Made by a program: the position numbers and the translations under genes. The notes under the pieces are model-generated. The model saw only the letters and a program-made list of their open reading frames with translations, had not been told where the DNA came from and did no database searches. From positions 4,368-68,367 of the forward strand of contig CAMYMI010000008.1 of assembly GCA_947259415.1 (NCBI GenBank): a stretch of DNA of 64,000 nucleotides, given 5' to 3'. This DNA is from an uncultured Ectothiorhodospiraceae bacterium. GTDB taxonomy: Bacteria > Pseudomonadota > Gammaproteobacteria > UBA9214. This document shows, piece after piece, positions 17,517 to 63,983 of this stretch. Each line of letters begins with the position of its first letter. Positions within the stretch are counted from its first letter, which is position 1.

Positions 17517-17655
17517 ATTCCTTCTCCCCTTCAAGGGGAGAAGGTTAGGATGAGGGGTGAGAAACGAAGTTTCTTAATCTGTAGTGTAAATTTTATCTGC
17601 CCTCACCCAGCCCTTTTATGCCTTTTGGGGTGCTCCCAATCATGGGAGAGGGGAT
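17517..17655. repeat. boxC-like CCCTCTCCC/GGGAGAGGG-GGGTGAGGG hairpin repeat pair
   Basis: TCCTTCTCCCC-TTCAA-GGGGAGAAGG-TTAGGATGAGGGG and inverted CCCTCACCCAGCCCT...CTCCC-AATCAT-GGGAGAGGGG. The family recurs at 24486-24600, 27972-28380, 30148-30182, 38273-38360, 39508-39850, 44098-44220, 45401-45438 and 46830-46915. Confidence 0.8.
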
Positions 17656-17781
17656 CAGTAATGGATCGTAGATAATATAATTTCATACAGCAGATATCCC
17701 GGGCGGCATGATCCTGATAGCCTGCCGGGGTTTCTTCGCGATCATCGGGAATCTCTATCAACCACAGGATGAACATTACCC

Positions 17782-47644: not shown

Positions 47645-47689
47645 CTCTGGGTAGAATCTGTGAAAGAATTTCCAAAAATCTACCCAGAG
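47645..47689. promoter_or_regulatory. 11-bp inverted repeat upstream of the methyltransferase, probable autoregulatory operator
   Basis: CTCTGGGTAGA (47645-47655) ... TCTACCCAGAG (47679-47689), abutting the RBS. Confidence 0.6.
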
Positions 47690-47698
47690 AGGAAACTG

Positions 47699-48946
47699 AT
47701 GGAACAGCTAAATGAGGCCGCCCGTGATGCACTTACTGTTGCCCTATCACGATATCCAAAGACTCAACTAGCTGAAGAATTATCAATCACAACCAAAACC
47801 CTGGATAGCTGGCTCAACAAGAACATCCCGAGTCCCGGTCTGGTTTATCACGCTGTCCATGGTTTTCTTGAATCCCGGAAGCGCATTGCAGGAAAAAGTG
47901 ACGCTCCCTTCAAGTTTATCGATCTATTCGCGGGTATCGGCGGGATTCGTCTTGGCTTCGAGGCGCACGGTGGTAAATGCCTCTTTACCAGTGAATGGGA
48001 CAAGTTCTCTATTCAGACCTACCGAGAGAATTTCAAGGAAGATGAGCATGCGATTCACGGTGACATAAGAGAAATCACAATAGATTCTGACAGAATCAGA
48101 GAAATGATTCCGGATCATGATGTCTTGCTTGCAGGATTTCCCTGTCAGCCTTTTTCAATTGCCGGTGTGTCAAAAAAGAATTCCCTTGGCAGGGCGCATG
48201 GCTTTGAATGCAAGACTCAAGGGACACTGTTCTATGAAATTGCAAAGATTATTGATGAAAAACAGCCGGGTGCTTTCCTGCTCGAGAATGTCAAAAACCT
48301 GAAGAGCCATGACAAGGGCAGGACTTACCAGACTATCCTTGACGTCCTGCGCAATGATCTTGGTTACTACGTACCCGAGCCCAGAGTAATAGATGGCAAG
48401 CATTTTGTGCCGCAGCACCGGGAAAGACTCATAATTGCCGGTTTCCGCAGGCCAGTAGCATTTGACTGGAATGATCTTGAGCTGCCAGATCTGGATTCTG
48501 CGCCAAGGCTGGGATCAATATTTCAGCAGGAAAGTGAAGTCGACAAGAAATATATTCTGACCAAAAATCTCTGGGACTATCTCCAAAACTATGCGCGCAA
48601 GCACAAGGCGAAGGGGAATGGTTTTGGTTTCGGCAAGGTTGGTCCCGATGATGTCGCCAGAACCCTCTCAGCTAGATACTACAAGGATGGTTCCGAGATA
48701 CTGGTCAAGAGAGGAAAGACCGGTAACGCAAGGCCAAGGCGCTTAACCCCGAGGGAATGCGCAAGACTGATGGGGTTTCCTGATTCCTTCGATATTCCGG
48801 TCTCGGACACCCAGGCCTACAAGCAGTTTGGTAACTCTGTAGTTGTTCCAGTGATTGAAGAGGTTGCCAGGATCATGTATCCGCACATCATGATACTCAA
48901 GCAGGAACAGGAGCTTGGCGAAGACCAGTACGCAATGGTTGTCTGA
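47699..48946 (+). CDS. dcm: DNA (cytosine-5) methyltransferase, Dcm/M.EcoRII-like, with N-terminal HTH
   Basis: [54 protein letters not shown]-terminal [18 protein letters not shown] helix-turn-helix. Confidence 0.95.
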
Positions 48947-49422
48947 TGGTTGATGTAGTTGATCCGGTGACCCGCAGCCGGATGATGTCCGGCATCCGTA
49001 GTAAAAATACAAGACCCGAGATTCTGATACGAAAAGGCCTGCATGCCAGGGGCTTTCGCTTTCGCCTGCATGACAAACGCCTCCCCGGAAAGCCGGATAT
49101 GGTTTTTCCAAAGTACGGCGCCGTAATCTTTATTCATGGCTGTTTTTGGCACGGCCATGACTGCCATTTGTTCAAGTTGCCGAAAACCCGCCGTGCTTTC
49201 TGGCATAAAAAGATTTCTCGTAATCAGGAAAAGGATGCGGAAAGTTATGCCAGTCTGAGAAAAGAAGGATGGTACATACTGACTATATGGGAGTGCGCCC
49301 TGAAGGGCAGAACGAGACGTCCTTTGGGGGAGGTTTTGGACTTGGTGGCCGACTGGCTTGTATATGAGTTACGTAATCGACAGATCAGTGGCATAAAGCG
49401 CAGGAATGTACAGCAGAAATGA
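48946..49422 (+). CDS. vsr: Very short patch repair endonuclease
   Basis: RSRMMS.IRSKNTRPE, LPGKPD, FIHGCFWHGH, IWEC. Confidence 0.95.
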   Translation: MVDVVDPVTRSRMMSGIRSKNTRPEILIRKGLHARGFRFRLHDKRLPGKPDMVFPKYGAVIFIHGCFWHGHDCHLFKLPKTRRAFWHKKISRNQEKDAESYASLRKEGWYILTIWECALKGRTRRPLGEVLDLVADWLVYELRNRQISGIKRRNVQQK

Positions 49423-50642
49423 AAAGGGGATTTCTATCAGAATATTTCGAGGGCGTAGCAGTCAAGCGCCTGAGTGCTGTCGAAGCAGACCCGGTGTCTT
49501 CAAACCAGCACGAGTTCAATGGTGTTGGCTCCATGAGGAAAATGCTCGGATCCGGGCGCCAGACATTTACCGCCCGGTTCGCCTATCTGGGCGAGGACGA
49601 GGACGATACCTCCTCTGCAGAGGGTTTCCTGACGTGGTATGACGCGCGTGAAGCACATCCGACCAGATCCGAATACCGCCTGTATTTCCCTTCCACTGCT
49701 GTGTCGGAACGTGCAGCGGAAGGCGATCTCATGGTTATCGGCAAACGTCAGGATGGTACTCTCCAGGTAATTATCGCCATGGCTGGCAGTACAGCCGAGA
49801 ACCAGTTGAGTTGGCTGTTTGGTGTACCGGTACAGATTGAGACAAGATTTGAGATTCGCGCATTCAAGGATGACACTGATGTTGAGGTGAATTTTGCTGC
49901 AAGATTCATCCTCGAGGAGCTGGGAGTAGAAATTGAAGAAGCTGATACGGACAGGCTGAACGGCCTGATTGAAAAATTCCACGGAGTGTTTCCGAGTACG
50001 GCAATCTTTTCTGCGTATGCGCGCGACACCTTGCCGGAGGTTGATCCCCGGGAAGATCCGGATGCGGCGCTACTGGCCTGGATGGAACAAGAGGAGAAAC
50101 TGTTTCGGAGACTTGAAAACCAGATTGTGTCCGAGCGCCTTAAGCAGGGATTCAGGGTAGAAGACAGTGCAGATGTGGATGCTTTTATCAGTTATTCGCT
50201 CAGTGTGCAGAACAGACGCAAGTCGCGTGCTGGTTATGCACTGGAACATCACCTTGATGAAATTTTCCGGGAAAATAATGTGCAATATGCACGCCAGGCT
50301 GTTACAGAAAACAACGCAAAACCGGATTTTCTTTTTCCGGGGGAAGCCGAGTATCACGATGAAAATTATTCGCCTGACAAGCTGTCAATGCTGGGTGTGA
50401 AGACCACCTGCAAGGATCGGTGGCGGCAGGTATTATCTGAGGCGAAAAGGATAAAACAAAAACATCTGTTTACTCTGGAGCCTGCCATCAGTGCTAACCA
50501 GACGTCCGAGATGGATGCACATCATGTCCGTCTGGTACTGCCTGCAGGGCTGCACAGCACCTACTCTGCGGAACAGCAAGGGAAGCTGTCTGATTTGCAG
50601 TACTTTATTGGCGTTGTGAAGGAGCGCCAGAGTCTCGTGTGA
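49419..50642 (+). CDS. Type II restriction endonuclease, EcoRII-like
   Basis: N-terminal KRLS.VE...SNQHE and R.EYRL. C-terminal NRRKSRAG..LE.H, KPDFLFPG, KTTCKDRWRQV..EA (EcoRII-C motifs). Confidence 0.88.
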   Translation: MKRGFLSEYFEGVAVKRLSAVEADPVSSNQHEFNGVGSMRKMLGSGRQTFTARFAYLGEDEDDTSSAEGFLTWYDAREAHPTRSEYRLYFPSTAVSERAAEGDLMVIGKRQDGTLQVIIAMAGSTAENQLSWLFGVPVQIETRFEIRAFKDDTDVEVNFAARFILEELGVEIEEADTDRLNGLIEKFHGVFPSTAIFSAYARDTLPEVDPREDPDAALLAWMEQEEKLFRRLENQIVSERLKQGFRVEDSADVDAFISYSLSVQNRRKSRAGYALEHHLDEIFRENNVQYARQAVTENNAKPDFLFPGEAEYHDENYSPDKLSMLGVKTTCKDRWRQVLSEAKRIKQKHLFTLEPAISANQTSEMDAHHVRLVLPAGLHSTYSAEQQGKLSDLQYFIGVVKERQSLV

Positions 50643-51400: not shown

Positions 51401-52164
51401 AGTCCGGCGTCCTCCATACGTGTCACCAGCAACTCGCACAGTTCATGTCGTCTGCAGAATTCTGTGACCACACCATCAATCCAGTCATTCAGTTCGAAAG
51501 GATCGGCCGAGTCCGGCTTGTCTTCAGGCGAGATGAAGCTTGCAAAATCGATCCATGGCTTGTGCCAGGAATCCTCGTCAGCATCTTCCTCGGCTATATT
51601 CAGGAAGATAAACAGCAATGTCTCGCGCAGGGCAGCAGGCAGTATCAGGCCCTGGAAGAGCGGGTTATTCATCAGCTGCCCCTTGGCTTCAGGGATGCGG
51701 TTATTGATACAGAGAACGGGCTTGCTGTCCGGTATGAAGCTCATTTTCCAGGTCAGATCACCGAGGTCCGTACTCTTGAACGTCATCAACGATGCGCGAC
51801 TTTCCTCTTCCTCGTCTTCTTTGGGTCGCAGACGTTCTGCACTTGCTACCAGCCTGCCGATTCTTTCGGACTTGTCGACCACCTTGACCCGGAACAGGAT
51901 CGGACCTGACAGATCAAGCTGGTCCAGGGTTCGGTCCTCAGGCGGAATCGGTGATCCGGCTGTTCCGAAATGAAAGCGTTGTGAAGTGTTCTTGTGATAA
52001 GCCTCGACATACAGTGCAGCATCTGCAGACAGCTTGCTCGAATCCAGTCTGAAGCTTGCATCAAAGGAGGGCGGGGCATGCGGGTGCTCGTTCAGGGTGA
52101 TCTGTACTTCTGTGCGCTTGATCTTTTTACGCCCGGTATGATTGATATGTCTGGAAGTCTTCAT
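51397..52164 (-). CDS. Hypothetical protein (third gene of the GHKL operon)
   Basis: 255 aa, ATGA-coupled on both sides, beta-rich N-terminal half. No family recognised. Confidence 0.8.
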   Translation of the reverse strand: MKTSRHINHTGRKKIKRTEVQITLNEHPHAPPSFDASFRLDSSKLSADAALYVEAYHKNTSQRFHFGTAGSPIPPEDRTLDQLDLSGPILFRVKVVDKSERIGRLVASAERLRPKEDEEEESRASLMTFKSTDLGDLTWKMSFIPDSKPVLCINNRIPEAKGQLMNNPLFQGLILPAALRETLLFIFLNIAEEDADEDSWHKPWIDFASFISPEDKPDSADPFELNDWIDGVVTEFCRRHELCELLVTRMEDAGL

Positions 52165-54014
52165 TCGCTCGCCTCCAGTGTCTGCAGATCGACCTTGAGA
52201 TCACGGTTGTGATCAAATCCGGTCACCTCGATACGGAAATCAGGCTCATTGATATTAAACTCAAGGATGTTCGCCTTCCGGTCCACCAGCATGGCCTTTG
52301 GTGAATCGGTACGAATGGATAACTCGCCCGTTCGATTGAAGTCAAAATCAAAGGGATTGTATTTCTTGAACGGATTGCCAGACATAATGTCGTAGGCAAC
52401 GCGCACCCGGCACCGAACCGGATACAGATCTGGGCTGGCATCATTACCCGGCAATACTGCAAACCCGCCCTTGATGGGTGTAATTCTGGCAGGTTTCAGC
52501 TTGGGCTCCGGTATCGGAGGAATATCCGGCGGTGTCTTTCCTCTCCTGCCTTTCTTGTGAGGCTGGTCCGGCAGTTCCGTCCAGAAAAACTCCATCAGCG
52601 CCTGTTCATCCTCTTCCTCGATGGATTGAGCGAGCAAGTCATAAAGGTTGACCACCGAGTTGCGGATGACCTTCAGCTTTGGCTGCGGATTGACATAATT
52701 TTTGCGCAGCTTCTCTGCCTGGGTGTTCCAGCGGGTATGGGCGGCATTTTCGGCATCGCCCAGGAAGGCTGCGATGGGCTCTTCTTCCGCAATCATGGCG
52801 CCAAGTGCCTTACGCTCCCGGAACTTGGCTTCTCCCGGCAGAGTCAGTCCGCCGCGGACATACATATCGTGGCCTTTCGTGAGTTCCTCGGGGCGTTTCA
52901 CATAAACCGAGAAACCAGACTCAATAACTTCCTTGTTCTTGCGTTTGATCGTAAGGGGCAGATACACGCCCACCATTTCCTTGTTTGCAAACCGTTCTCG
53001 CAGATTTTCCAGGTCTTCCGGCTCGATGTCATCCTCATCGAGCTTGCTGTCATCTGCCCAGCTCTTCTTGAGAATGAGCAGATCGGATTCCGGTGTATTG
53101 TTCATCTCGCCAATAAAGTCAAACAACTGGTCAATGTCAGATATCTTGCCGGTGGCGTACCGATTGGCGAGCTCGCGGATATTGCCGGAATTGATTTCGA
53201 TATCATCAAAGTTCAGTACCAGCTGACCGGTAATGATTGGGTAGAAGTAGTTGACGATACCGACGGCAATCATGTTTTCGAGATCCAGTTCCGGGTTCGG
53301 AAACGGGACAGCGATGGAGAGCCCGGTCTGGTCACGTCTTTCCAGGCCAAAGTTATTGCAGAACGCAGCGGTAACATCACCGCCCCGCACCGGAACCTGG
53401 ATCTGGTTGTTCGGATCCTCGCCTGCCAGCTCGGAAAAGAAAGCGTGTGCCGGATATTCGACGCCACCATATTTGTGGAATCCTAGTACGGTCTGTCCCA
53501 TCAGGTACGGGTCAGGGTCTCCAGACCGGACAGTCACGCCAAAAAAGGAACTCAACAGCGAAGAGCTGGAATAAACAAGCTTACCAAGTCCCCAGCGCCC
53601 CCGGCTGCGACCGGTCTTGTGGGAACGGCCATGGCGCCGCCAGAAGTCAGTGAAATTGTCATCATCCTTTTGCTCGACAGAGCCGGTCAGTCCGCGGGTG
53701 CCGAAGTCCTCAATGATCAGAGCGGAGGGGTTGTTAAAGTCAAGCTCGTTGAGTTCAATCCCGGCCGAGGCGGCATGTTCAAGATGACCCTCGAAAAGTT
53801 GTCGCATATAACCGTTGTGTAACCCGCTGCAGCCATTGACCCAGCGAAATTTAACCCGGACCTGGTCTTCACCTATAGCGGCATCAAGCGAATTCTGGAC
53901 CGCTTCCCGCACAATGGTATCGGAGAGGTCAACCTCGTCATTGCGGAACTGATCCCGCTGGGTAACCTCGGTTTCAACCAGATTCTGTGGTTGGGGGACA
54001 AAATGCCATTTCAT
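52161..54014 (-). CDS. GHKL (HATPase/MORC-like) ATPase domain protein
   Basis: Bergerat motifs REAVQNSLDA (I), IEDFGTRGL (II), GRWGLGK (III), TGLSI (IV). AAGGA RBS. Confidence 0.8.
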   Translation of the reverse strand: MKWHFVPQPQNLVETEVTQRDQFRNDEVDLSDTIVREAVQNSLDAAIGEDQVRVKFRWVNGCSGLHNGYMRQLFEGHLEHAASAGIELNELDFNNPSALIIEDFGTRGLTGSVEQKDDDNFTDFWRRHGRSHKTGRSRGRWGLGKLVYSSSSLLSSFFGVTVRSGDPDPYLMGQTVLGFHKYGGVEYPAHAFFSELAGEDPNNQIQVPVRGGDVTAAFCNNFGLERRDQTGLSIAVPFPNPELDLENMIAVGIVNYFYPIITGQLVLNFDDIEINSGNIRELANRYATGKISDIDQLFDFIGEMNNTPESDLLILKKSWADDSKLDEDDIEPEDLENLRERFANKEMVGVYLPLTIKRKNKEVIESGFSVYVKRPEELTKGHDMYVRGGLTLPGEAKFRERKALGAMIAEEEPIAAFLGDAENAAHTRWNTQAEKLRKNYVNPQPKLKVIRNSVVNLYDLLAQSIEEEDEQALMEFFWTELPDQPHKKGRRGKTPPDIPPIPEPKLKPARITPIKGGFAVLPGNDASPDLYPVRCRVRVAYDIMSGNPFKKYNPFDFDFNRTGELSIRTDSPKAMLVDRKANILEFNINEPDFRIEVTGFDHNRDLKVDLQTLEASE

Positions 54015-54974: not shown

Positions 54975-56810
54975 CTAAGCTGGTCCTGCAACGCGATGAA
55001 CCCCGGCCGGCGCGAGAAGGCTCTCTATCCAGGCGACTGGGCCTCCTCGGTTGGTGCAGAGCGTAAAAAATGCCCGTTGTTCTGCTCGTGTAAAAGCGAC
55101 AAAAAATGAATTGAGTTCTTCAATTCTATTGGGTGTCAGGCTCCACCATGTCTGGTTATCAAGCCCGTAGAAAATCATCGTATGAAACTCAAGTCCCTTG
55201 CTCTTGTGAATGGTCATCAGAGCAACTTGATCAAGTCCTTCAAACTGATCGATAGCATCCGCCCAGCTTGCTGCATCATCTGCAGTTTCAGCGAGAAGAT
55301 CGGCGAACCCTGTCCACACCCGGTCAAAATCCTGCTGGCGCCGGTACCCCGGGAAGGCCCGTCTCAAAATGGAAGTACCGATAAAATCAAGCGCACGTCT
55401 CGCAATTGTCCGTGCTGCGTCATTATCTGGTTCAAGGGTATTCATTTCAGTGCGCAGTTCGCGAATAAATGTCTGTAAACGCTGCTGCAAACGCTGCTGG
55501 CCTACCTCATCGTGAGGATAGATCCCTTCAAGAAATTGCAGGTTTCGCTGCGCGCTGTTCCATGAAATGGGATTCTTAATGGTCGCACCAAGCCGAAGAA
55601 GGGGAAGAAGAATCGCTGTCAGCTCTTCGCCTAAAAGATCCTGAATAGCAATGTTACCAATATTTCGCGCAACATTGCGCAGTTTCACATCATGCTGAGT
55701 CAGGGATGCTGCGAGTACCTGTTCCACATCATTGGCATGCATGCGAACGAGTATCGCGATTTCATGCGGGTCAATACCGTTGTCAATTTCTCCGGCGATC
55801 CATGCGGCGAGGCCATCCGCTTCATTTTCATTGCTTTCATATTGCCAGATCGCTGCGACATCGCCGTCCACATTGCGGTCAGCACGTGCCTCCGCTTGCT
55901 CGGCCTGCGGGTCGATACGCTTCGCTATAACGTGTTGGATGCGGACTAGATCCTCGTGCGATCGCCAGTTCGATACAAGCGGAATTCGTCTTGCATCGAA
56001 ATCGGCTTCAAATCGTGCGAATGCATCGGGCATTGCGCCAGCCCAACCCATGATGCGCTGCTTGTCATCACCCACGGCAGTAAAGATCGCGCTGCTGCCA
56101 TCAAAGGCGGTGTGAAGGAGATCGAACTGCGCGTAGGTCGTGTCCTGGAATTCATCGAGAAAGACGAATGGATAAGTTGCCTGTAGAGCGCGGCGAATAT
56201 CGGGATTCTCGCGCAGCAGCCAGTCCACTAGACGATTGATCATGGGAAAGGACAGAAATACCTCGTCTTTTTCGGTGTACTGCGCGTGCCAGTAGGCCCG
56301 TAATGCGTTTTCCACTCCATCAGCTAGCGGGAGACGGGTGCGTGCAACATTCCGCTCTAGTGTGGCTATATTTACGCCGTGGTAGTTGTGGCTGGTCAGG
56401 AAATGCTGTAACTGCTGCCGAGTGGGGAAATCGATCCTATAGTTTGGCGGTGGCGAAAAAGGCGCGGGAATTGCTGCCCGGAAACGATCAACGAAGCCCT
56501 TTGTAAACGCATCAAAGGTCATCGAATCAAAGCGGCCCGCCTGCTCGGGCGGGCATCGCTTTTCAACACGCTCGGCGAGATTCCGTGCTGCGTCCCGCTT
56601 GAAACTAATGGCAAGGATCCGCTTCGGGGCTGGGCATATCCCAGTCTGCAGAAGATAGGTTCCCTTCTGAGCAAGGAACTCTGTCTTGCCGGCCCCGGCA
56701 CCGGCCGTCACGCAGACGCTGCGACCGTTCTCCTGTAGCGCTTCCCAGGCGCGCGGCTCAAGGTCGTCAACGCCCTGCGGTCGCCACGAATCTGGCGGCA
56801 CAAGTTTCAT
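54975..56810 (-). CDS. UvrD/Rep-family SF1 helicase (GajB-like)
   Basis: AGAGAGKT, DEFQD, VGDDKQRI, NWRS, MTIHKSKGLEF, VAFTRA. ATGA-coupled to the OLD nuclease. Confidence 0.9.
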   Translation of the reverse strand: MKLVPPDSWRPQGVDDLEPRAWEALQENGRSVCVTAGAGAGKTEFLAQKGTYLLQTGICPAPKRILAISFKRDAARNLAERVEKRCPPEQAGRFDSMTFDAFTKGFVDRFRAAIPAPFSPPPNYRIDFPTRQQLQHFLTSHNYHGVNIATLERNVARTRLPLADGVENALRAYWHAQYTEKDEVFLSFPMINRLVDWLLRENPDIRRALQATYPFVFLDEFQDTTYAQFDLLHTAFDGSSAIFTAVGDDKQRIMGWAGAMPDAFARFEADFDARRIPLVSNWRSHEDLVRIQHVIAKRIDPQAEQAEARADRNVDGDVAAIWQYESNENEADGLAAWIAGEIDNGIDPHEIAILVRMHANDVEQVLAASLTQHDVKLRNVARNIGNIAIQDLLGEELTAILLPLLRLGATIKNPISWNSAQRNLQFLEGIYPHDEVGQQRLQQRLQTFIRELRTEMNTLEPDNDAARTIARRALDFIGTSILRRAFPGYRRQQDFDRVWTGFADLLAETADDAASWADAIDQFEGLDQVALMTIHKSKGLEFHTMIFYGLDNQTWWSLTPNRIEELNSFFVAFTRAEQRAFFTLCTNRGGPVAWIESLLAPAGVHRVAGPA

Positions 56811-58798
56811 TCGTCATCATCCCCAAAGCCAAGTACATTTTTAACATGTTCGATGAGAGATTTCAGGGATGCAGGCGAATCCTCTAAAAGCTGCTTATCA
56901 AGTATGCGTGCGAGTGCGGCAAGATGGGTTTCTGGTTTGCTGCGGTGAAGAAACAGATAGGGATACCATCTGAAGACTTCATCATAGTCGCCACCGTAGA
57001 GCTTCGGGTCGCCGCTGGTTTTCAATGTGGCTGCCTTGGCACTTTCAAGAGCTTTGGCGGTGCTGCGAGGTCCATAACCACCCGGATTGGGATGCATGTA
57101 GGCGCCCGGGAATGCTTCGAGCATCGCAAAATCAAGGTCAAGCGGATCGGACAAGAACACCCCTTCATCCTCGAGCGCCTGCACCCAGTGATTTTGCTCG
57201 TAATCCAGCCAGAGGTCATCGTCCTCGAGATCATCGATCGCATCAGGATCGATATCGTCGAGGACGGCCTTGATGTTGTTGCTGAGATCGACGCCGATTA
57301 CAGTCAGGTTCTCGGCAACGCTGCGAATGATCCCAGCACCGCCGTGCGCGCGGCCGATATCAAAATCGAGCAGCGTCGCATATGGGATTTTCAGGTCGGA
57401 CAGTAACGTCCAAAAATGTGTGCAATACCGCCCACCTAGGGGGACGATCGGCACAAAGGACGGATCGAGCGATATCCCCATAGCTTCGGCGATCCGCGGT
57501 ATGACTAGCTGCTCTGAGTCGCCTTCTGCAAGTATGACAAATCGTGCGAAATACAATTCCGGATAGGCCCTGACTGCGAGCCGCACATATTGGCTGGCCT
57601 CTGCATCGCTCATCGGGAGCATCAACTTGCGCACGGATGACTGCCTGCGCTCGCGGTCCAGCCGAAAATACCGAACCTCCTCCGGTTCGATGCGGCTGAG
57701 GATTGCTGCAGAATGGCTCGACAATACAACCTGTGCTGTATCGAGCGCACCAATGTCGCGCGCCTGCATAATAATGCGCGATAAAAAGAAGGGCGAGAGA
57801 CTGTTCTCCGGTTCTTCTATAGCCAGGAGCGTGAGGTGCGCCCTGCGCAGCTTTTCCTGGTCGAACGCGCTTTCATCGGGCGGTAGGGCAAAAGCATCTC
57901 GCTCGACTTCGAGGGTCGCGGCTGTCAGGGCAATGTGAAAGAGCGAGCGCTGCCCGTCGCTTAATTCTGAAAGTGCTCGCTCCTGTCCGGCCTCATCGGG
58001 ATAGAACGCAAAGTCCGCCTTGCGGACAAATTCTTCAAATCGGCGTTCTACCAGGCGTAAAATCGGTGTCGTATCGGTATCGGCCTCATGCACTTGTTTC
58101 CATCGTGCCTCGAGTCTTTCCAATACAAACTTGGCCGGATCCTCATCCTGAAACGTCTCCTGGATTTGTCTTGCGGTGTCCGCGGTAGTCTGCCGGAATT
58201 CTTCCGACCATTTTGCGGCCTGCCATAGACGCCCCTTGAGAAGGGACGTCACCTGTTCATCCACATTACGCGTGGCGGGAATATAGACAAGTTGTATCGT
58301 CCCACGCTCGACAGCCGGCACCTTCTGGCAGTCGTCATCCCAGTCGTAATCGTCGTCAAGCGCCCTGACCCAGCGAATATCCTCATCAACGCTGCCGCTC
58401 GGCGTACCATCATCGGTCCAGGTCGCCTTGAGCATGATTCTTACTTTCAGCGGCGCGCCGGGTTCGGAGGCGGCCATTTGCAGGAAGAACTCAGGCACGG
58501 CATCGCCCACAGCGTCACCCTCGAAACCTTCGAGTTCCGGGAAACAAAGGACGACATCAATAAGTAAATTCGCCCCTGATTGAAGCTCCTGCTGGTCGAG
58601 AGACAGATGAAAGTCGCGCTGGCGAATCGTGCGTTGGGCAGGCGTGACGCCGAATAAACGCGAGAGTCCCTGAAGCAGCGCGGTTTTTCCCGCGCCGTTC
58701 CCGCCGACAAGGGCAGTGACGCTGTCTTCAATAGCAATTGTCGTTGCTTCCGGGCCAAAGCACCTGAACCCTTTCAAGGACACGCTTTCTATCTTCAT
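56807..58798 (-). CDS. OLD-family ATP-dependent nuclease (ABC ATPase + Toprim, GajA-like)
   Basis: GFRCFG, GGNGAGKT, LSDGQ, AIEEPE, SSHS, Toprim ILAEGDSE and DFD. Confidence 0.9.
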   Translation of the reverse strand: MKIESVSLKGFRCFGPEATTIAIEDSVTALVGGNGAGKTALLQGLSRLFGVTPAQRTIRQRDFHLSLDQQELQSGANLLIDVVLCFPELEGFEGDAVGDAVPEFFLQMAASEPGAPLKVRIMLKATWTDDGTPSGSVDEDIRWVRALDDDYDWDDDCQKVPAVERGTIQLVYIPATRNVDEQVTSLLKGRLWQAAKWSEEFRQTTADTARQIQETFQDEDPAKFVLERLEARWKQVHEADTDTTPILRLVERRFEEFVRKADFAFYPDEAGQERALSELSDGQRSLFHIALTAATLEVERDAFALPPDESAFDQEKLRRAHLTLLAIEEPENSLSPFFLSRIIMQARDIGALDTAQVVLSSHSAAILSRIEPEEVRYFRLDRERRQSSVRKLMLPMSDAEASQYVRLAVRAYPELYFARFVILAEGDSEQLVIPRIAEAMGISLDPSFVPIVPLGGRYCTHFWTLLSDLKIPYATLLDFDIGRAHGGAGIIRSVAENLTVIGVDLSNNIKAVLDDIDPDAIDDLEDDDLWLDYEQNHWVQALEDEGVFLSDPLDLDFAMLEAFPGAYMHPNPGGYGPRSTAKALESAKAATLKTSGDPKLYGGDYDEVFRWYPYLFLHRSKPETHLAALARILDKQLLEDSPASLKSLIEHVKNVLGFGDDDE

Positions 58799-59037
58799 GG
58801 CCGTAACCGCCTGCCTTGAAAAGTTGCCAACATTCCTTTTTTCATGCCAAGCTGCCAATCGGAGGTGTGGAGTAAACGAACTTTATCGCTTGTTTGCATC
58901 CCAGATTCTCCTAACGATCAATCAGGGGTCGAGGAGGCACAATATACCCGTGTAGAATGCGGGGATCACCTTTTTTGAAGAATGTATCCGGCCGCTTTAG
59001 TTGATTCCACGCTGGGTGCAACCGGGAGGATTTCACC

Positions 59038-59392: not shown

Positions 59393-59456
59393 AAATGGGG
59401 TCGGAGCACAATTTCTCTTAATATTAGTGATAATTGTGCTCTGACCCCATTTTTTT
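59393..59456. repeat. GGGGTC-type hairpin repeat
   Basis: AAATGGGGTCGGAGCACAATT...AATTGTGCTCTGACCCCATTT. Related hairpins at 59624-59677, 60704-60765 and 63462-63512. Confidence 0.75.
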
Positions 59457-59470
59457 GCTAATACCTGTTA

Positions 59471-59619
59471 CGAATTAGGGGACAGTATACTTATATCGCT
59501 GCAATGACAGGTTTTTCGTTATCAGAGAGCATTTTCTTAATCGGGCCCATATCCGGATTTGTGTACTGTTTGATACAAGTTCATGAATTGTCTGTGCGAC
59601 TTTCAGAGGGGTTATCCGG
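59471..59619 (+). repeat. 149-bp direct repeat, copy 1
   Basis: Matches 60766-60914 with 3 mismatches by eye. Begins CGAATTAGGGGACAGTATAC. Confidence 0.9.
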
Positions 59620-59690
59620 CGGATTCAAGGGGTCAGAGTACTTGAATAAAATTTCTAGTACTCCGACCCCTTGAATTCCAGTTGCACCGG

Positions 59691-60599: not shown

Positions 60600-60765
60600 A
60601 AACATTAATGCTGGGCTTACCGCATGCCTATGGTGCCATTGTCGTGTTTGCCAGGGCAATGGCCCGGGTGGCAACAAATCCCTGCAGTCTGCAGGGAATC
60701 ACGAAAAAAAGGGTCAGACTCGATTGATTAGATGAATTATTGACGTTTCAATGGAGTCTGACCCG

Positions 60766-60914
60766 CGAATTAGGGGACAGTATACTTATATCGCTGCAAT
60801 GACAGGTTTTTCGTTATCAGAGGGCATTTTCTTAATCGGGCCCATATCCGGATTTGTGTACCGTTTGATACAAGTTCATGAATTGTCTGTGCGACTTTCA
60901 GAGGGATTATCCGG
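60766..60914 (+). repeat. 149-bp direct repeat, copy 2
   Basis: See 59471-59619. Confidence 0.9.
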
Positions 60915-60935
60915 TGGGCTGCGCCGGACTCCGGT

Positions 60936-60964
60936 TTGACAAAAGCCCGCATCGGGTCTATAAA
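60936..60964 (+). promoter_or_regulatory. Sigma70-type promoter
   Basis: TTGACA-17 bp-TATAAA, ending 8 nt before the first riboswitch aptamer. Confidence 0.75.
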
Positions 60965-60972
60965 TAATTCAT

Positions 60973-61028
60973 AGCGCCGATTTGACTCAGCTTGCAGGGC
61001 GCTTAATAAATACTCGCTAAAGAGAGGG
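60973..61028 (+). promoter_or_regulatory. SAM-II-like riboswitch aptamer 1
   Basis: P1 AGCGCC/GGCGCT, GATTT, TTGC, A-rich L3 (AATAAAT) and GCTAAAG, in the order of the SAM-II pseudoknot consensus. Confidence 0.78.
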
Positions 61029-61032
61029 ACAG

Positions 61033-61066
61033 AAACCCGCTTTAGCACCAGCTGAGCGGGTTTTTT
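61033..61066 (+). terminator. Intrinsic terminator forming the expression platform of aptamer 1
   Basis: AAACCCGCT...AGCGGGTTTTTT. CTTTAGC (61040-61046) is complementary to aptamer GCTAAAG (61016-61022). Confidence 0.8.
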
Positions 61067-61070
61067 GTTG

Positions 61071-61126
61071 CCGCCGATTTAAGTGACAACTTGCGGGGCG
61101 GGATACAAGTGCTGCTAAAGCGTCAT
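61071..61126 (+). promoter_or_regulatory. SAM-II-like riboswitch aptamer 2 (tandem)
   Basis: P1 CCGCC/GGCGG, GATTT, TTGC, ATACAAGT, GCTAAAG. GTGAC can pair with GTCAT. A downstream hairpin covers GAGGAG. Confidence 0.78.
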
Positions 61127-61187
61127 GTGTCTTCGTGCCCCGGACACCGCTGACAGGCGATCAACCGGGGCGAAGAGGAGACATGTT

Positions 61188-61388
61188 ATGTCCGCACAAT
61201 CCGCCGATATCCTGACCCTGTTTCAGGGCAGCTACACCGTCCTGCAACCCATTTCCATCCGCGGCGAGGTCTGGCTCGAGCGCCACGTCGACTCGGCCCA
61301 GCGCCTGGGCACGGCCGTGCCTGTCGACAACAGCCTCCTGGCACCCATTCTGGAGGGGCTTGTCCGTGACGGGCTGCGGGTTGCCTGA
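61188..61388 (+). CDS. Small hypothetical protein (66 aa)
   Basis: GAGGAG RBS then ATG 61188. MSAQSADILTLFQGSYTVLQP...GLVRDGLRVA. Confidence 0.72.
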   Translation: MSAQSADILTLFQGSYTVLQPISIRGEVWLERHVDSAQRLGTAVPVDNSLLAPILEGLVRDGLRVA

Positions 61389-61678
61389 TGGACGGGCTGG
61401 AGACGATCAGGCGGCGCAACAACCGGGCCGTAGCCAGCCAGGGCCTGTGGTGCAGGGTGGCCGATATAGACGGCGGGCGCTGGTTTGCCGGTGATGTCAT
61501 CGACGTGCGGGACGATCCCGCCGGCAACGTCACGGTCAAGCTGCGCCCGGTCTGTCTGTCGCACAAGGGGCAGCTCCCACAGTACCAGCAGGATTCAGGC
61601 GCCGGCTGGGGCTTCTTGCTGGCGCTGTGGCTGGGTGCGCAGGGTCTGTTGTGGGTGCTGAGTTGGGTGCTGAAATGA
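61388..61678 (+). CDS. Small hypothetical protein with C-terminal TM helix
   Basis: TGATG overlap with the upstream ORF. SH3/Tudor-like beta segment, then GWGFLLALWLGAQGLLWVLSWVLK. Confidence 0.62.
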   Translation: MDGLETIRRRNNRAVASQGLWCRVADIDGGRWFAGDVIDVRDDPAGNVTVKLRPVCLSHKGQLPQYQQDSGAGWGFLLALWLGAQGLLWVLSWVLK

Positions 61679-61788
61679 CAGGAGTTGCCGGCGTGAACAA
61701 TGCCGGATTTGACTGGATCGCGCCTGCGAGGCGTTTCTACAATTATAAGGATTACGTAGTTGGGTTTTGAACGAGTTGGGTTTCAGTG

Positions 61789-61844
61789 CCGCCGATTTGA
61801 TCTGCAGCTTGCAGGGCGGGATACAAATGCTGCTAAAGCGTTGG
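61789..61844 (+). promoter_or_regulatory. SAM-II-like riboswitch aptamer 3
   Basis: P1 CCGCC/GGCGG, GATTT, TTGC, ATACAAAT, GCTAAAG. The following CTGTCC...GCCCC / GGGGC...GGACAG hairpin covers the RBS of the ORF at 61904. Confidence 0.78.
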
Positions 61845-61903
61845 CTGTCCCGCATGCCCCGGGGACGACCGGCGAGGTCAATCACGGGGGCGAGGACAGG
61901 ACC

Positions 61904-62602
61904 ATGAGCAAAGCAAGATCCGACACAGAAACGCTTTTCCACCCCATCGAGCAGGCCATCCTGTGCGACTGGCTGGGGCGCGAGCGGCCGCCCGCGGCCC
62001 GCGACATTGCCCTCGAGGCGCAGGTGGACGGGACTGACGACGGGCCGATTACCCTGAGGCGCGCCTCCTATGGCGACACCAACGAGTTCACGCTGGCCAA
62101 TGCCGTGGCCCGGCTGGTGCTCGAGGGCATCCAGCAGCGGCTGCCGACCTCGGCGATCTGCTATCCCGACAAAATGGTGCTCACGCGCGACTACAACCCG
62201 AAGACCCGGCGCAAGCTGGACCTGCTGCCACGCTTCCTGTTCCAGATCAACTGGGCCAATTCAGCGCCCGGCATCAGCTGGCCGGTTGCGTACTACGTGA
62301 CCTGGCTGCCGGTCTACGATGTCTTTGTGGTCACCGAGTCGGCCGACTCGCCGGACGCGCTGGGCTACTGCGACCGCGCGATGGGCTGGTTCGACGCGGT
62401 CACCCCGCTCGAGGCAGGCGCGAAGCGCGTGATTGCCGGCGACTGGCAGCATCAGTACGATGAGTGGGACCAGCAACACTGGGAAAATTTCTGGGACGAG
62501 GGGTTGATCTCGACGGCAGAGGCCTGGGCCTGGGCAGCCGATATTTGGGGAGAAGAGGAAGACGATCTGGACAACGAGGAGGCGGATGAGGCCTGCCTGT
62601 GA
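61904..62602 (+). CDS. Acidic Trp-rich hypothetical protein (232 aa)
   Basis: AGGA RBS, ATG 61904, host-like codon usage, F.INWA.S.PG.SWP..YY.TW and VVT.S.DS motifs. No family recognised. Confidence 0.8.
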   Translation: MSKARSDTETLFHPIEQAILCDWLGRERPPAARDIALEAQVDGTDDGPITLRRASYGDTNEFTLANAVARLVLEGIQQRLPTSAICYPDKMVLTRDYNPKTRRKLDLLPRFLFQINWANSAPGISWPVAYYVTWLPVYDVFVVTESADSPDALGYCDRAMGWFDAVTPLEAGAKRVIAGDWQHQYDEWDQQHWENFWDEGLISTAEAWAWAADIWGEEEDDLDNEEADEACL

Positions 62603-62679: not shown

Positions 62680-63429
62680 ATGTCCAAGTACTACAAGGGA
62701 AAACGTACGCGCAATCTCTACGTGCCGGGGGGTGAAAAACCGTTCAAGCTGTCCCGCTCGAAGCTCGAGCTGTTCATGAACTGCCCGCGCTGCTTCTACC
62801 TGGACCGGCGGCTGGGTGTTGGTCAGCCGCCCGGTTTCCCCTTCAACCTGAACTCGGCCGTTGATGCCTTGCTCAAGAAGGAGTTCGATGACTACCGGGC
62901 CAGGCAAGAGCCACACCCCCTGATGATTACAAACGAAATTGATGCCGTTCCGTATGCCCATGAGTCACTGGATAAGTGGCGAGAGAACTTCAAGGGAGTT
63001 GCTACTCATCACAGGGAGACTAACTTGCGCGTTTCTGGTGCCGTTGATGATCTCTGGGTCAACCCGGCGGGTGAGGTGATCGTGGTTGACTACAAGGCCA
63101 CCAGCAAGAATGGCGAGATCAACCTCGATGCAGACTGGCAGGATGGCTATAAGCGCCAGATGGAGATCTACCAGTGGCTGGTGCGACGCCAGGGCCTGGC
63201 CGTATCCGACACCGGTTATTTCGTCTACTGCAACGGCCGACGCGACAGGGATGCCTTCGATGGCAGGCTGGAGTTCTATATCCATGTAATTCCCTATACG
63301 GGGAATGATGGCTGGGTAGAGGACTGTATCAGGGCTGCGCATGAATGCCTTGTGGATGACATGATTCCGGAATCGAGTTCTGATTGTGATTACTGCAGGT
63401 ATCGCAAAGCGGTACAGGAAGTGAAATAG
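62680..63429 (+). CDS. PD-(D/E)XK nuclease family protein (RecB/AddB-like, stand-alone)
   Basis: LSRSKL....CPRCFY, GAVDD, VVDYK, Q..IY, C-terminal CDYC. GAGGG RBS. Confidence 0.88.
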   Translation: MSKYYKGKRTRNLYVPGGEKPFKLSRSKLELFMNCPRCFYLDRRLGVGQPPGFPFNLNSAVDALLKKEFDDYRARQEPHPLMITNEIDAVPYAHESLDKWRENFKGVATHHRETNLRVSGAVDDLWVNPAGEVIVVDYKATSKNGEINLDADWQDGYKRQMEIYQWLVRRQGLAVSDTGYFVYCNGRRDRDAFDGRLEFYIHVIPYTGNDGWVEDCIRAAHECLVDDMIPESSSDCDYCRYRKAVQEVK

Positions 63430-63461: not shown

Positions 63462-63512
63462 AAGGGGTCAGAGTACTTGAATAAAATTTCTAGTACTCTG
63501 ACCCCTTGAATT
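63462..63512. repeat. 51-bp GGGGTCAGAGTAC hairpin, direct repeat of 59627-59677
   Basis: AAGGGGTCAGAGTACTTGAATAAAATTTCTAGTACTC(T/C)GACCCCTTGAATT, one mismatch between copies. Confidence 0.85.
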
Positions 63513-63560: not shown

Positions 63561-63983
63561 ATGAATACATTTAGCGTAATTTTGAGTGGCGTAGCAGTAT
63601 TTATATTGGGCGAAATATTCGTGCGCTTTTTCTTGTCGCCCATTCATAAAATTAAAGAAGTAAAAGGTGAAATAGCTAGCACCCTATTATTTCATGCAAA
63701 CAATTATGGGCATGAATATAAAAATCTTGAAGATGCTCTTGCGAGTGAAGGAGGGGATGAAAGATTTATTAATGAAAGGATAATCTCAATTAAACAATGG
63801 AACAATGATTTATCAAGAGCAAGCGATGAAACCAGGGCTGTTGCAGCCAAGCTTATTTCTGCTGCAGAAGGAATCCCCTTTTATAAAGAAATATCCATGA
63901 TGAAGATGATTCCGCCAAAAGAAAATATTCTAAGCGCAAAAAGAGATCTCATTGGTTTGTCGAACTCGTTTTCTGCAGACTAA
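63561..63983 (+). CDS. AT-rich hypothetical protein with N-terminal TM helix
   Basis: 140 aa ORF in a conspicuously AT-rich segment, hydrophobic N-terminus. Confidence 0.6.
   Translation: MNTFSVILSGVAVFILGEIFVRFFLSPIHKIKEVKGEIASTLLFHANNYGHEYKNLEDALASEGGDERFINERIISIKQWNNDLSRASDETRAVAAKLISAAEGIPFYKEISMMKMIPPKENILSAKRDLIGLSNSFSAD

Follow-up and report, generated by a model that had tools for sequence, protein, structure and literature searches.

According to the textbooks, SAM riboswitches regulate the supply of methionine and SAM. Which genes, then, are served by an array of such switches that stands inside a defense island, and how might its single members act? This question is raised by a 64-kb stretch of DNA from an uncultured Ectothiorhodospiraceae bacterium (GCA_947259415.1, contig CAMYMI010000008.1, positions 4,368 to 68,367)—the whole of which is referred to as the window in the following. 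Four SAM-II-type aptamers lie here within about 3.2 kb: three inside the window and one about 100 nt past its end. A preliminary description dealt with the first two of them and proposed a tandem riboswitch with two different platforms, namely a transcription terminator followed by sequestration of the ribosome-binding site (RBS). Every sequence feature listed there is confirmed; aptamers 3 and 4 went unnoticed, as did the conserved gene p232. In our reading, the region is likely the leader of an accessory operon under SAM control. This reading builds on the sequence features of the leader, the covariation of the P1 helices, the recurrence of both platforms, and the association of p232 with several classes of SAM riboswitches—from which we infer SAM binding, an OFF logic, and the action of aptamers 2 to 4 on a distant hairpin.

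The promoter, the three aptamers of the window, their platforms, and the open reading frames of the operon all lie on the plus strand. A sigma-70-type promoter can be read by eye at 60936–60964 (TTGACA at 60936–60941, a 17-nt spacer, TATAAA at 60959–60964); it is unlisted by the promoter scan, which demands a T at position 6. The closest relative found—locus L062, whose p232 is 78% identical—bears a promoter with identical spacing at the equivalent place. Judged from the promoter position, the transcript is predicted to start at about 60971, roughly 2 nt 5′ of the P1 helix of aptamer 1. Aptamer 1 itself (60973–61022) consists of P1 (60973–60978 with 60998–61003), the motifs GATTT (60979–60983) and CTTGC (60991–60995), and the 3′ tail GCTAAAG (61016–61022). 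After the terminator of aptamer 1 follows aptamer 2 (61070–61120; P1 61071–61075 with 61097–61101, tail 61114–61120), which starts 4 nt beyond the end of the T-run at 61066 and, hence, directly after the U-tract, as had been described. A long hairpin then leads to the first open reading frame. Two complete aptamers, each with its own expression platform, are therefore found in one leader. Aptamer 3 (61788–61838) stands before p232, and the fourth aptamer (contig C8, 68460–68520) shows the same hairpin design and precedes a 50-aa open reading frame. RNA-library contigs of a relative cover parts of 60972–62197, these contigs displaying neither ends nor strand. Matches to sequencing runs amount to small shares (≤0.13 of words), with the contigs stemming from relatives at 85–95% identity.

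Are these elements SAM-II aptamers? At gathering score, Rfam gives no match in the whole window. Aptamer 1 reaches 29.5 bits with SAM_alpha (RF00521; E 1.2e-4 in a 701-nt search), with all 79 model positions aligned, and aptamer 3 reaches 18.1 bits; aptamer 2 matches no Rfam SAM model at E ≤ 10. As both scores lie below the gathering score of 36 bits and aptamer 2 is unmatched, the three stand formally outside RF00521. Homologous aptamers upstream of p232 in two other loci do pass this threshold (L025 with 37.7 bits and L051 with 38.3 bits). The likeness to RF00521 lies in P1, the 3′ tail, and the motifs of the loops, all of which align to the consensus, and in the OFF logic to be expected from it; the differences lie in the scores, in the host, which is not an alphaproteobacterium to judge by the relatives with similar aptamers, and in the cargo, which is not a methionine gene.

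The case from comparison with other genomes is, however, strong. The model R2 was derived solely from aptamers outside this genome. Across the 64-kb window, R2 yields just three matches above 60 bits, at 61783–61844 (71.0 bits, aptamer 3), 60968–61028 (65.0 bits, aptamer 1), and 61065–61126 (63.1 bits, aptamer 2), with a runner-up at 11.7 bits—values to be read in the light of the fact that the R2 training sequences were gathered with a model whose seeds were the six copies of this genome. In 38 aptamers from other genomes, in an alignment that was fitted to the model, P1 is paired in 94.6% of cases versus 36–66% in slid controls and 71.4% in shuffles, with none of 500 shuffles attaining the native value; for five of its six pairs, both partners vary. 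Aptamers 2 and 3 of the window share 85% identity over 55 nt, and in the P1 of each, a G-C pair of aptamer 1 is replaced in a compensatory manner by C-G. Chance resemblance is rejected by the P1 covariation test and the R2 window scan.

The same core is present six times in this genome, as found by regular expression and alignment: three copies lie in the window, one past its end, and one each on contigs C9 and C30. Only the C9 copy is found on a met gene—it precedes a metZ-like gene, named by eye from its translated start, and represents an ordinary housekeeping leader. None of the six copies deviates in GATTT, CTTGC, or GCTAAAG. The putative pseudoknot pairs between loop and tail, assigned after the SAM-II crystal structure, do not vary either and hence offer no covariation. 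Aptamers 1 to 3 would presumably bind SAM.

The platform of aptamer 1 is the clearer of the two types. The intrinsic terminator at 61036–61066 comprises a 10-bp stem with one bulge (5′ arm 61036–61046, 3′ arm 61051–61060), a 4-nt loop (61047–61050), and a T6 run (61061–61066). Folded over 61033–61069, it reaches −18.0 kcal/mol (z −5.1), with none of 200 shuffles as good. The preliminary description had pointed out that CTTTAGC is the exact complement of the aptamer tail GCTAAAG and had placed it in the 5′ arm and loop of the terminator. The complement is indeed present and sits at 61040–61046, which is wholly within the 5′ arm. Tail and an adjoining GGG can pair with this arm in a predicted anti-terminator hairpin at 61014–61047 (−12.1 kcal/mol, z −3.8; unmatched by any of 200 shuffles).

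This arrangement recurs. The terminator stem is also found in L016, L020, L021, L039, and L062 and on contig C30 of the same genome. Over 18 terminator-type instances, the duplex of tail and 5′ arm has a mean of −6.9 kcal/mol versus −3.2 kcal/mol with shuffled arms, and the pairing beats 95% of the shuffled arms in 12 of them; L012, an unreliable case for which the wrong terminator was picked, is counted among the six non-significant ones. The 5′ arm of L062 bears an A-to-G substitution that retains the pairing in terminator and anti-terminator alike. The aptamer 1 platform is hence, largely as proposed, a predicted ligand-controlled terminator. After initiation at about 60971, bound SAM would hold the tail at 61016–61022 in the pseudoknot, the terminator at 61036–61066 would form, and transcription would stop at about 61066. 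If SAM is absent, the free tail would pair with the 5′ arm of the terminator, and RNA polymerase would continue. The accompanying statement that SAM-II alone is usually translational fails in this lineage, where the genome's own metZ leader aptamer likewise has a terminator; terminator-type SAM-II switches have also been described in print (PMC9481103, PMC9373788).

The second platform is of a different kind. A hairpin at 61124–61185 (−35.0 kcal/mol, z −5.7; likewise unmatched by any of 200 shuffles) pairs the Shine–Dalgarno sequence GAGGAG (61175–61180), located 7 nt before the ATG at 61188, with a pyrimidine-rich 5′ arm. After aptamer 3, a hairpin at 61840–61903 (−32.7 kcal/mol, z −2.45; equaled or surpassed by 5 of 200 shuffles) does the same with GAGGA (61892–61896) before the ATG at 61904. 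Among 15 comparable hairpin platforms, 12 have at least three quarters of the Shine–Dalgarno sequence paired. The burial of GAGGAG, claimed earlier, is thus borne out by the folding and by its recurrence. How the ligand would come into play is less apparent. In whole-leader folding, the −35 kcal/mol hairpin and P1 form together, whatever the aptamer does, and no ligand-dependent alternative to the hairpin at 61124–61185 emerges from thermodynamic folding. Covariation of the P1 3′ strand with the hairpin arm is not discernible either (native −12.34 versus non-native −11.99 kcal/mol, permutation p 0.24). The proposed two-platform tandem stands, hence, as far as two SAM-II-type aptamers, a terminator, and a Shine–Dalgarno hairpin are concerned, whereas these data give no evident sign that the ligand controls the second hairpin.

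Might then only the first switch work, with aptamers 2 and 3 being relics of duplication and their hairpins independent of SAM? Such hairpins could keep translation at a constant low level, or else take part in the stabilization or processing of the mRNA. The folding of the hairpin irrespective of the aptamer and the failure of hairpin arm and P1 3′ strand to covary agree with this possibility, as does the fact that aptamer 2 goes unrecognized by Rfam. However, the cores of the hairpin-type aptamers are as conserved as those of the terminator type, over 15 instances from many lineages, and a hairpin-type aptamer is the sole one that the model seeded from this genome finds before p232 in L047, L048, L055, and L057. 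Their P1 helices are kept intact via compensatory changes, which is unexpected of relics, and aptamer 2 of the window possesses an alternative duplex with the 5′ arm of its hairpin of −19.6 kcal/mol. We consider decayed duplicates quite improbable.

Ligand control through the hairpin of aptamer 2 is a plausible prediction. One possible mechanism is a strand exchange, in which the P1 3′ strand competes with the hairpin for its 5′ arm; within the window, the −19.6 kcal/mol duplex of aptamer 2 lends this idea some support, whereas covariation specific to lineages is not seen. Alternatively, SAM might fold away the tail and the single-stranded linker of about 20 nt, which otherwise might offer a standby site for the ribosome. 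By either route, aptamer 2 would gate translation of the first gene—whose RBS lies within a very stable hairpin—together with that of the coupled second gene; aptamer 3 would gate translation of p232 likewise, and the fourth aptamer that of the 50-aa open reading frame. As all these switches would be of the OFF type, the genes would therefore be made only at low SAM. The hairpin platforms provide many natural examples of a SAM-II aptamer with an RBS about 55 nt away.

What does the leader control? The first two genes give little away. p66, a 66-aa open reading frame (61188–61388), has only two homologs, with 86% and 77% identity. The start of p96 (96 aa, 61388–61678) overlaps the stop of p66 in TGATG; p96 likewise has two homologs, and its C-terminal stretch is hydrophobic. 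Neither protein matches anything in Pfam, NCBIfam, PHROG, or PADLOC, and homologs of both are absent from the 51 loci that carry p232. The toxic products expected in the preliminary description thus find no support here, the sole hint being the hydrophobic stretch of p96. L062 shows a simpler layout, in which p232 directly follows the promoter, aptamer 1 and its terminator, and a unit resembling aptamer 3; upstream and in divergent orientation, a unit resembling aptamer 4 accompanies a p50 homolog. Judging from L062, the ancestral unit would be the tandem switch followed by p232; because the tandem unit stands directly before p232 there, aptamer 2, p66, and p96 appear to have been inserted along with a duplicated aptamer. 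Downstream of p232, a PD-(D/E)XK or Cas4-like nuclease is encoded at 62680–63429 (Pfam PF12705, 5.9e-15), possibly in the same transcript as p232. A homolog of this nuclease with 55% identity adjoins p232 in locus L037.

Attention thus turns to p232, a conserved hypothetical protein of 232 aa (61904–62602). Its listed open reading frame, beginning at 61760, is too long; the true start is the ATG at 61904, because the homologs begin there. The family comprises 90 homologs, whose alignment bears about 20 invariant residues, and 51 genome loci, distributed over beta-, gamma-, and alphaproteobacteria, Verrucomicrobia/Opitutia, Chlorobiaceae, Nitrospira, and Gemmatimonadetes. A SAM-II-like aptamer is found upstream on the same strand in 22 of these loci (E ≤ 1e-3). 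Searched over the 375 kb of all 51 loci, the model seeded from the six copies of this genome gives 38 matches, every one of them on the strand of the gene. Other loci bear other classes: SAM-I/IV stands above gathering score upstream of p232 homologs in L015, L059, L032, L027, L022, L023, L050, and L046—in L027 even twice—and SAM-V in L033. Taken together, 31 of the 51 loci carry a SAM-II-like, SAM-I/IV, or SAM-V riboswitch upstream on the same strand. For the remaining 20, which are mostly from Opitutia and some of which end short upstream, the models used find no riboswitch. One further, weak, match was seen in L024. When L024 is counted with the 31, the distance from the end of the nearest aptamer to the p232 start, as estimated, is at most 200 nt in 24 of these 32 loci. 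Tandems—a terminator-type aptamer and then a second aptamer within 135 nt—occur in 15 of the 51 loci and also in L062; the second unit of the 15 is of the long-hairpin type in eight and has the Shine–Dalgarno sequence directly after the tail in seven, as in SAM-V-like units.

SAM-II-like, SAM-I/IV, and SAM-V riboswitches, which represent two unrelated folds, have thereby been recruited to the p232 family in at least five phyla. If unrelated aptamer folds stand before one gene family, SAM should therefore be the ligand and p232 the gene that matters; this is the best available argument for both. It also bears on the idea that the aptamers of the window are specificity variants sensing a ligand other than SAM. 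Such variants would explain a cargo unrelated to methionine or SAM metabolism and would suit Rfam scores below the gathering score, and re-targeting of a SAM aptamer has a precedent in SAM-I variants that sense spermidine (PMC10853860). Against them, no core position differs from the aptamer in this genome's metZ leader, and orthologous positions bear SAM-I/IV, SAM-V, and SAM_alpha above Rfam thresholds—unrelated folds whose common denominator is SAM. A switch of ligand appears highly improbable, and we keep to SAM in the following.

The p232 protein itself has no match in Pfam, NCBIfam, PHROG, or PADLOC. Its AlphaFold2 model, although confident (pLDDT 80.9, pTM 0.80), finds nothing at E ≤ 1e-3 in the PDB with Foldseek and none among the viral structures of BFVD at the same threshold; a wide search with VIA-align gives a best Z of 3.3, and the ESM Atlas holds no usable match. 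As a lead only, the N terminus of the homolog P0034 contains an Mrr_N-like stretch, which scores below the Pfam threshold (25.4 versus 29.5 bits). No match to p232 was found in plasmids and phages by tblastn or in a scan of IMG/VR, and a metagenome scan returned two loci only. Within its order, p232 is present in one of 54 species genomes. Because of its absence from these mobile collections and its rarity in the order, p232 is best described as a host-borne, horizontally scattered accessory gene.

The surroundings of the locus are rich in defense genes. In the window, the island contains a type II restriction-modification system with Vsr (47660–50642), a PADLOC candidate protein (52161–54014), and a full Gabija pair (GajB 54975–56810 and GajA 56807–58858). 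Elsewhere, p232 has as neighbors Eco47II and a C5 methylase (L021); a GajA-like ATPase, a C5 methylase, and an Mrr/AspBHI-type enzyme (L037); Vsr (L025), AbiEii (L024), CcdA (L032), and NERD/UvrD helicases (L011, L020); and integrases (L012, L039) or a ResIII/PLD enzyme (L023). Other p232 loci are not obviously defense-related.

This setting could be incidental, if p232 and its partners had an overlooked role in SAM or methionine supply—as a salvage enzyme, for instance, or an uptake accessory. Repression by SAM is the classical logic of supply genes, SAM-II controls met genes in all published regulons consulted (PMC4239095), and the 20 loci devoid of a detected riboswitch as well as the many neighborhoods unrelated to defense would be compatible with such a role. 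However, not a single methionine or sulfur gene is found among the 165 p232-neighbor proteins scanned (116 + 49), the partner genes are variable and lineage-specific, and the neighbors include Gabija, restriction-modification, Vsr, AbiEii, CcdA, NERD/UvrD, and integrases. A supply function would also have to be reconciled with a gene carried by so few genomes of the order. We regard it as rather unlikely and favor an accessory operon under SAM control.

Certain phages degrade SAM or prevent it from being made, thereby disarming restriction and BREX. Speculatively, and with a low probability in our own estimate, the SAM switches might act as a metabolic alarm of the defense island, serving abortive infection or a back-up defense, or the alleviation of restriction for an under-methylated chromosome. 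A phage attack on SAM would let its level fall, all four switches would open at once, and p232, a small membrane-anchored protein, the Cas4-like nuclease, and other small products would be switched on. If this were true, a riboswitch would sense phage counter-defense, and p232 would represent a new effector fold. The locus offers, at any rate, a handle on two questions: which genes, beyond those of methionine synthesis, must cells turn on when SAM runs out, and might metabolite-sensing RNAs serve as detectors of phage sabotage of SAM?

How does the array compare with known systems? A total of 44 tandem SAM-II riboswitches was reported by Sherlock et al. (2022; PMC9481103); in some of these, the terminator comes first and RBS control thereafter. 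The same authors report seven pairs of SAM-II followed by SAM-I/IV and two in the reverse order. Because such tandems are reported there, the terminator-then-RBS architecture of two SAM-II aptamers is already known. As in tandem bi-mechanism switches (SAM-II/SAM-V; PMC9481103), the terminator belongs to the first aptamer and the predicted RBS control to the second, within one leader. Unlike the tandems described in the main text of that paper, the RBS lies here about 55 nt from the aptamer tail and within a long hairpin, not in or beside the tail, and two further aptamers are found inside or behind the operon. This main text names no comparable gene association, the terms “hypothetical,” “unknown function,” and “phage” being absent from it; the supplementary lists of the paper may contain such loci. 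In the literature, we found no paper tying SAM riboswitches to defense islands or to the p232 family, with the reservation that the supplementary tables of PMC9481103 and PMC4239095 may list loci of this type. The architecture is, hence, published; new is the four-aptamer array on nonmetabolic genes, and new as well is the association of SAM riboswitches with one protein family across phyla and riboswitch classes, in defense-rich islands.

Single aptamers provide further points of comparison. In Sinorhizobium meliloti, Scheuer et al. (2022; PMC9373788) describe a metZ SAM-II aptamer with a terminator and a metA SAM-II aptamer that influences translation starting 74 nt downstream, for which a standby site is discussed. 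Both are single aptamers on methionine genes as described there, in contrast to the array on other genes presented here, and the Shine–Dalgarno sequence of metA resides in the riboswitch tail, whereas it is found in a separate hairpin here. Leyn et al. (2014; PMC4239095) describe a beta-proteobacterial “metXZ” element, in which a conserved pseudoknot is followed by a nonconserved terminator before metX or metZ. That element is described with one copy per genome on met genes, compared with six copies here, five of which lie off met genes; the remaining one, the metZ leader on contig C9, matches the description and is probably a metXZ element itself.

The surroundings of the tandem SAM-II-type riboswitch are rich in defence genes. 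Upstream of it, the window bears a complete Gabija pair on the minus strand (54975–58858), which comprises the UvrD-type helicase GajB (54975–56810; PADLOC E-value 4.8e-216) and the OLD/ATPase–TOPRIM protein GajA (56807–58858; E-value 2.6e-235), with a 4-nt overlap between the two reading frames. A type II restriction-modification operon lies on the plus strand at 47660–50642 and encodes a C5 cytosine methylase together with two endonucleases, the mismatch enzyme Vsr and one of EcoRII-C type; it is adjoined by a minus-strand match to the PADLOC candidate PDC-M33A (52161–54014).

The gene blocks of this island are flanked by palindromic repeats of approximately 50 nt, found at 59623–59676 and 63462–63511, with related palindromes at 59393–59452 and 60711–60765. 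Genome-wide, these repeats give 38 BLAST matches, which cluster on the contig carrying the window (C8) and on contigs C23 and C29 at a spacing of 1 to 2 kb—a spacing by which the clusters resemble a cassette array. The usual end motifs of integron attC sites were not found in the palindromic repeats on inspection by eye. In addition, a direct repeat of 152 nt occurs in two copies of 97% identity (59471–59622 and 60766–60917), and the riboswitch promoter starts 18 nt past the end of the second copy. Elsewhere in the genome, this direct repeat is represented by its first 45 nt only, on contigs C23 and C30.

Further copies of the aptamer are present in the same genome. Contig C30 carries a second copy of aptamer 1 and its terminator (17566–17666, corresponding to 2570–2680 of locus L009), which is 86% identical to the original over 103 nt. 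The next plus-strand ORF after this copy appears to encode a secreted protein; the contig stops 1.1 kb downstream. Aptamer 4 is followed by a 50-aa ORF just past the window end (L008 2580–2732), whose counterpart in the close relative L062 (304–453, minus strand) is conserved at the protein level. There, the ORF is again preceded by its own SAM-II-type aptamer and hairpin, with the orientation of this unit relative to the tandem reversed compared with the genome studied here.

RadC-like JAB and RelA/SpoT-type HD (HD_4) proteins are familiar from mobile-element and defence contexts. In some relatives (L013 2313–5259; also L016, L017, and L050), genes for a RadC-like JAB protein and an HD_4 hydrolase are among those that separate the gene for the conserved hypothetical protein p232 from the tandem riboswitch or immediately follow p232. 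DUF3293 proteins adjoin p232 in two unrelated loci (L036 3117–3542 and L046 4063–4518), and histone-deacetylase-family genes are close by in L036 and L059. Some p232 homologs themselves bear extra segments: in two (L012 3986–5257 and L019 3992–5266), the C terminus is extended by a conserved segment of roughly 200 aa and of unknown family (43% mutual identity), and the metagenomic homolog P0034 begins with an Mrr_N-like winged-helix stretch that scores under the Pfam threshold.

Near the window end, a 140-aa ORF (63561–63983) matches phrog_7512, a PHROG of unknown function. It bears a hydrophobic segment at its N terminus and lies in an AT-rich stretch, with a GC content of 0.37 versus 0.58 for the genome.
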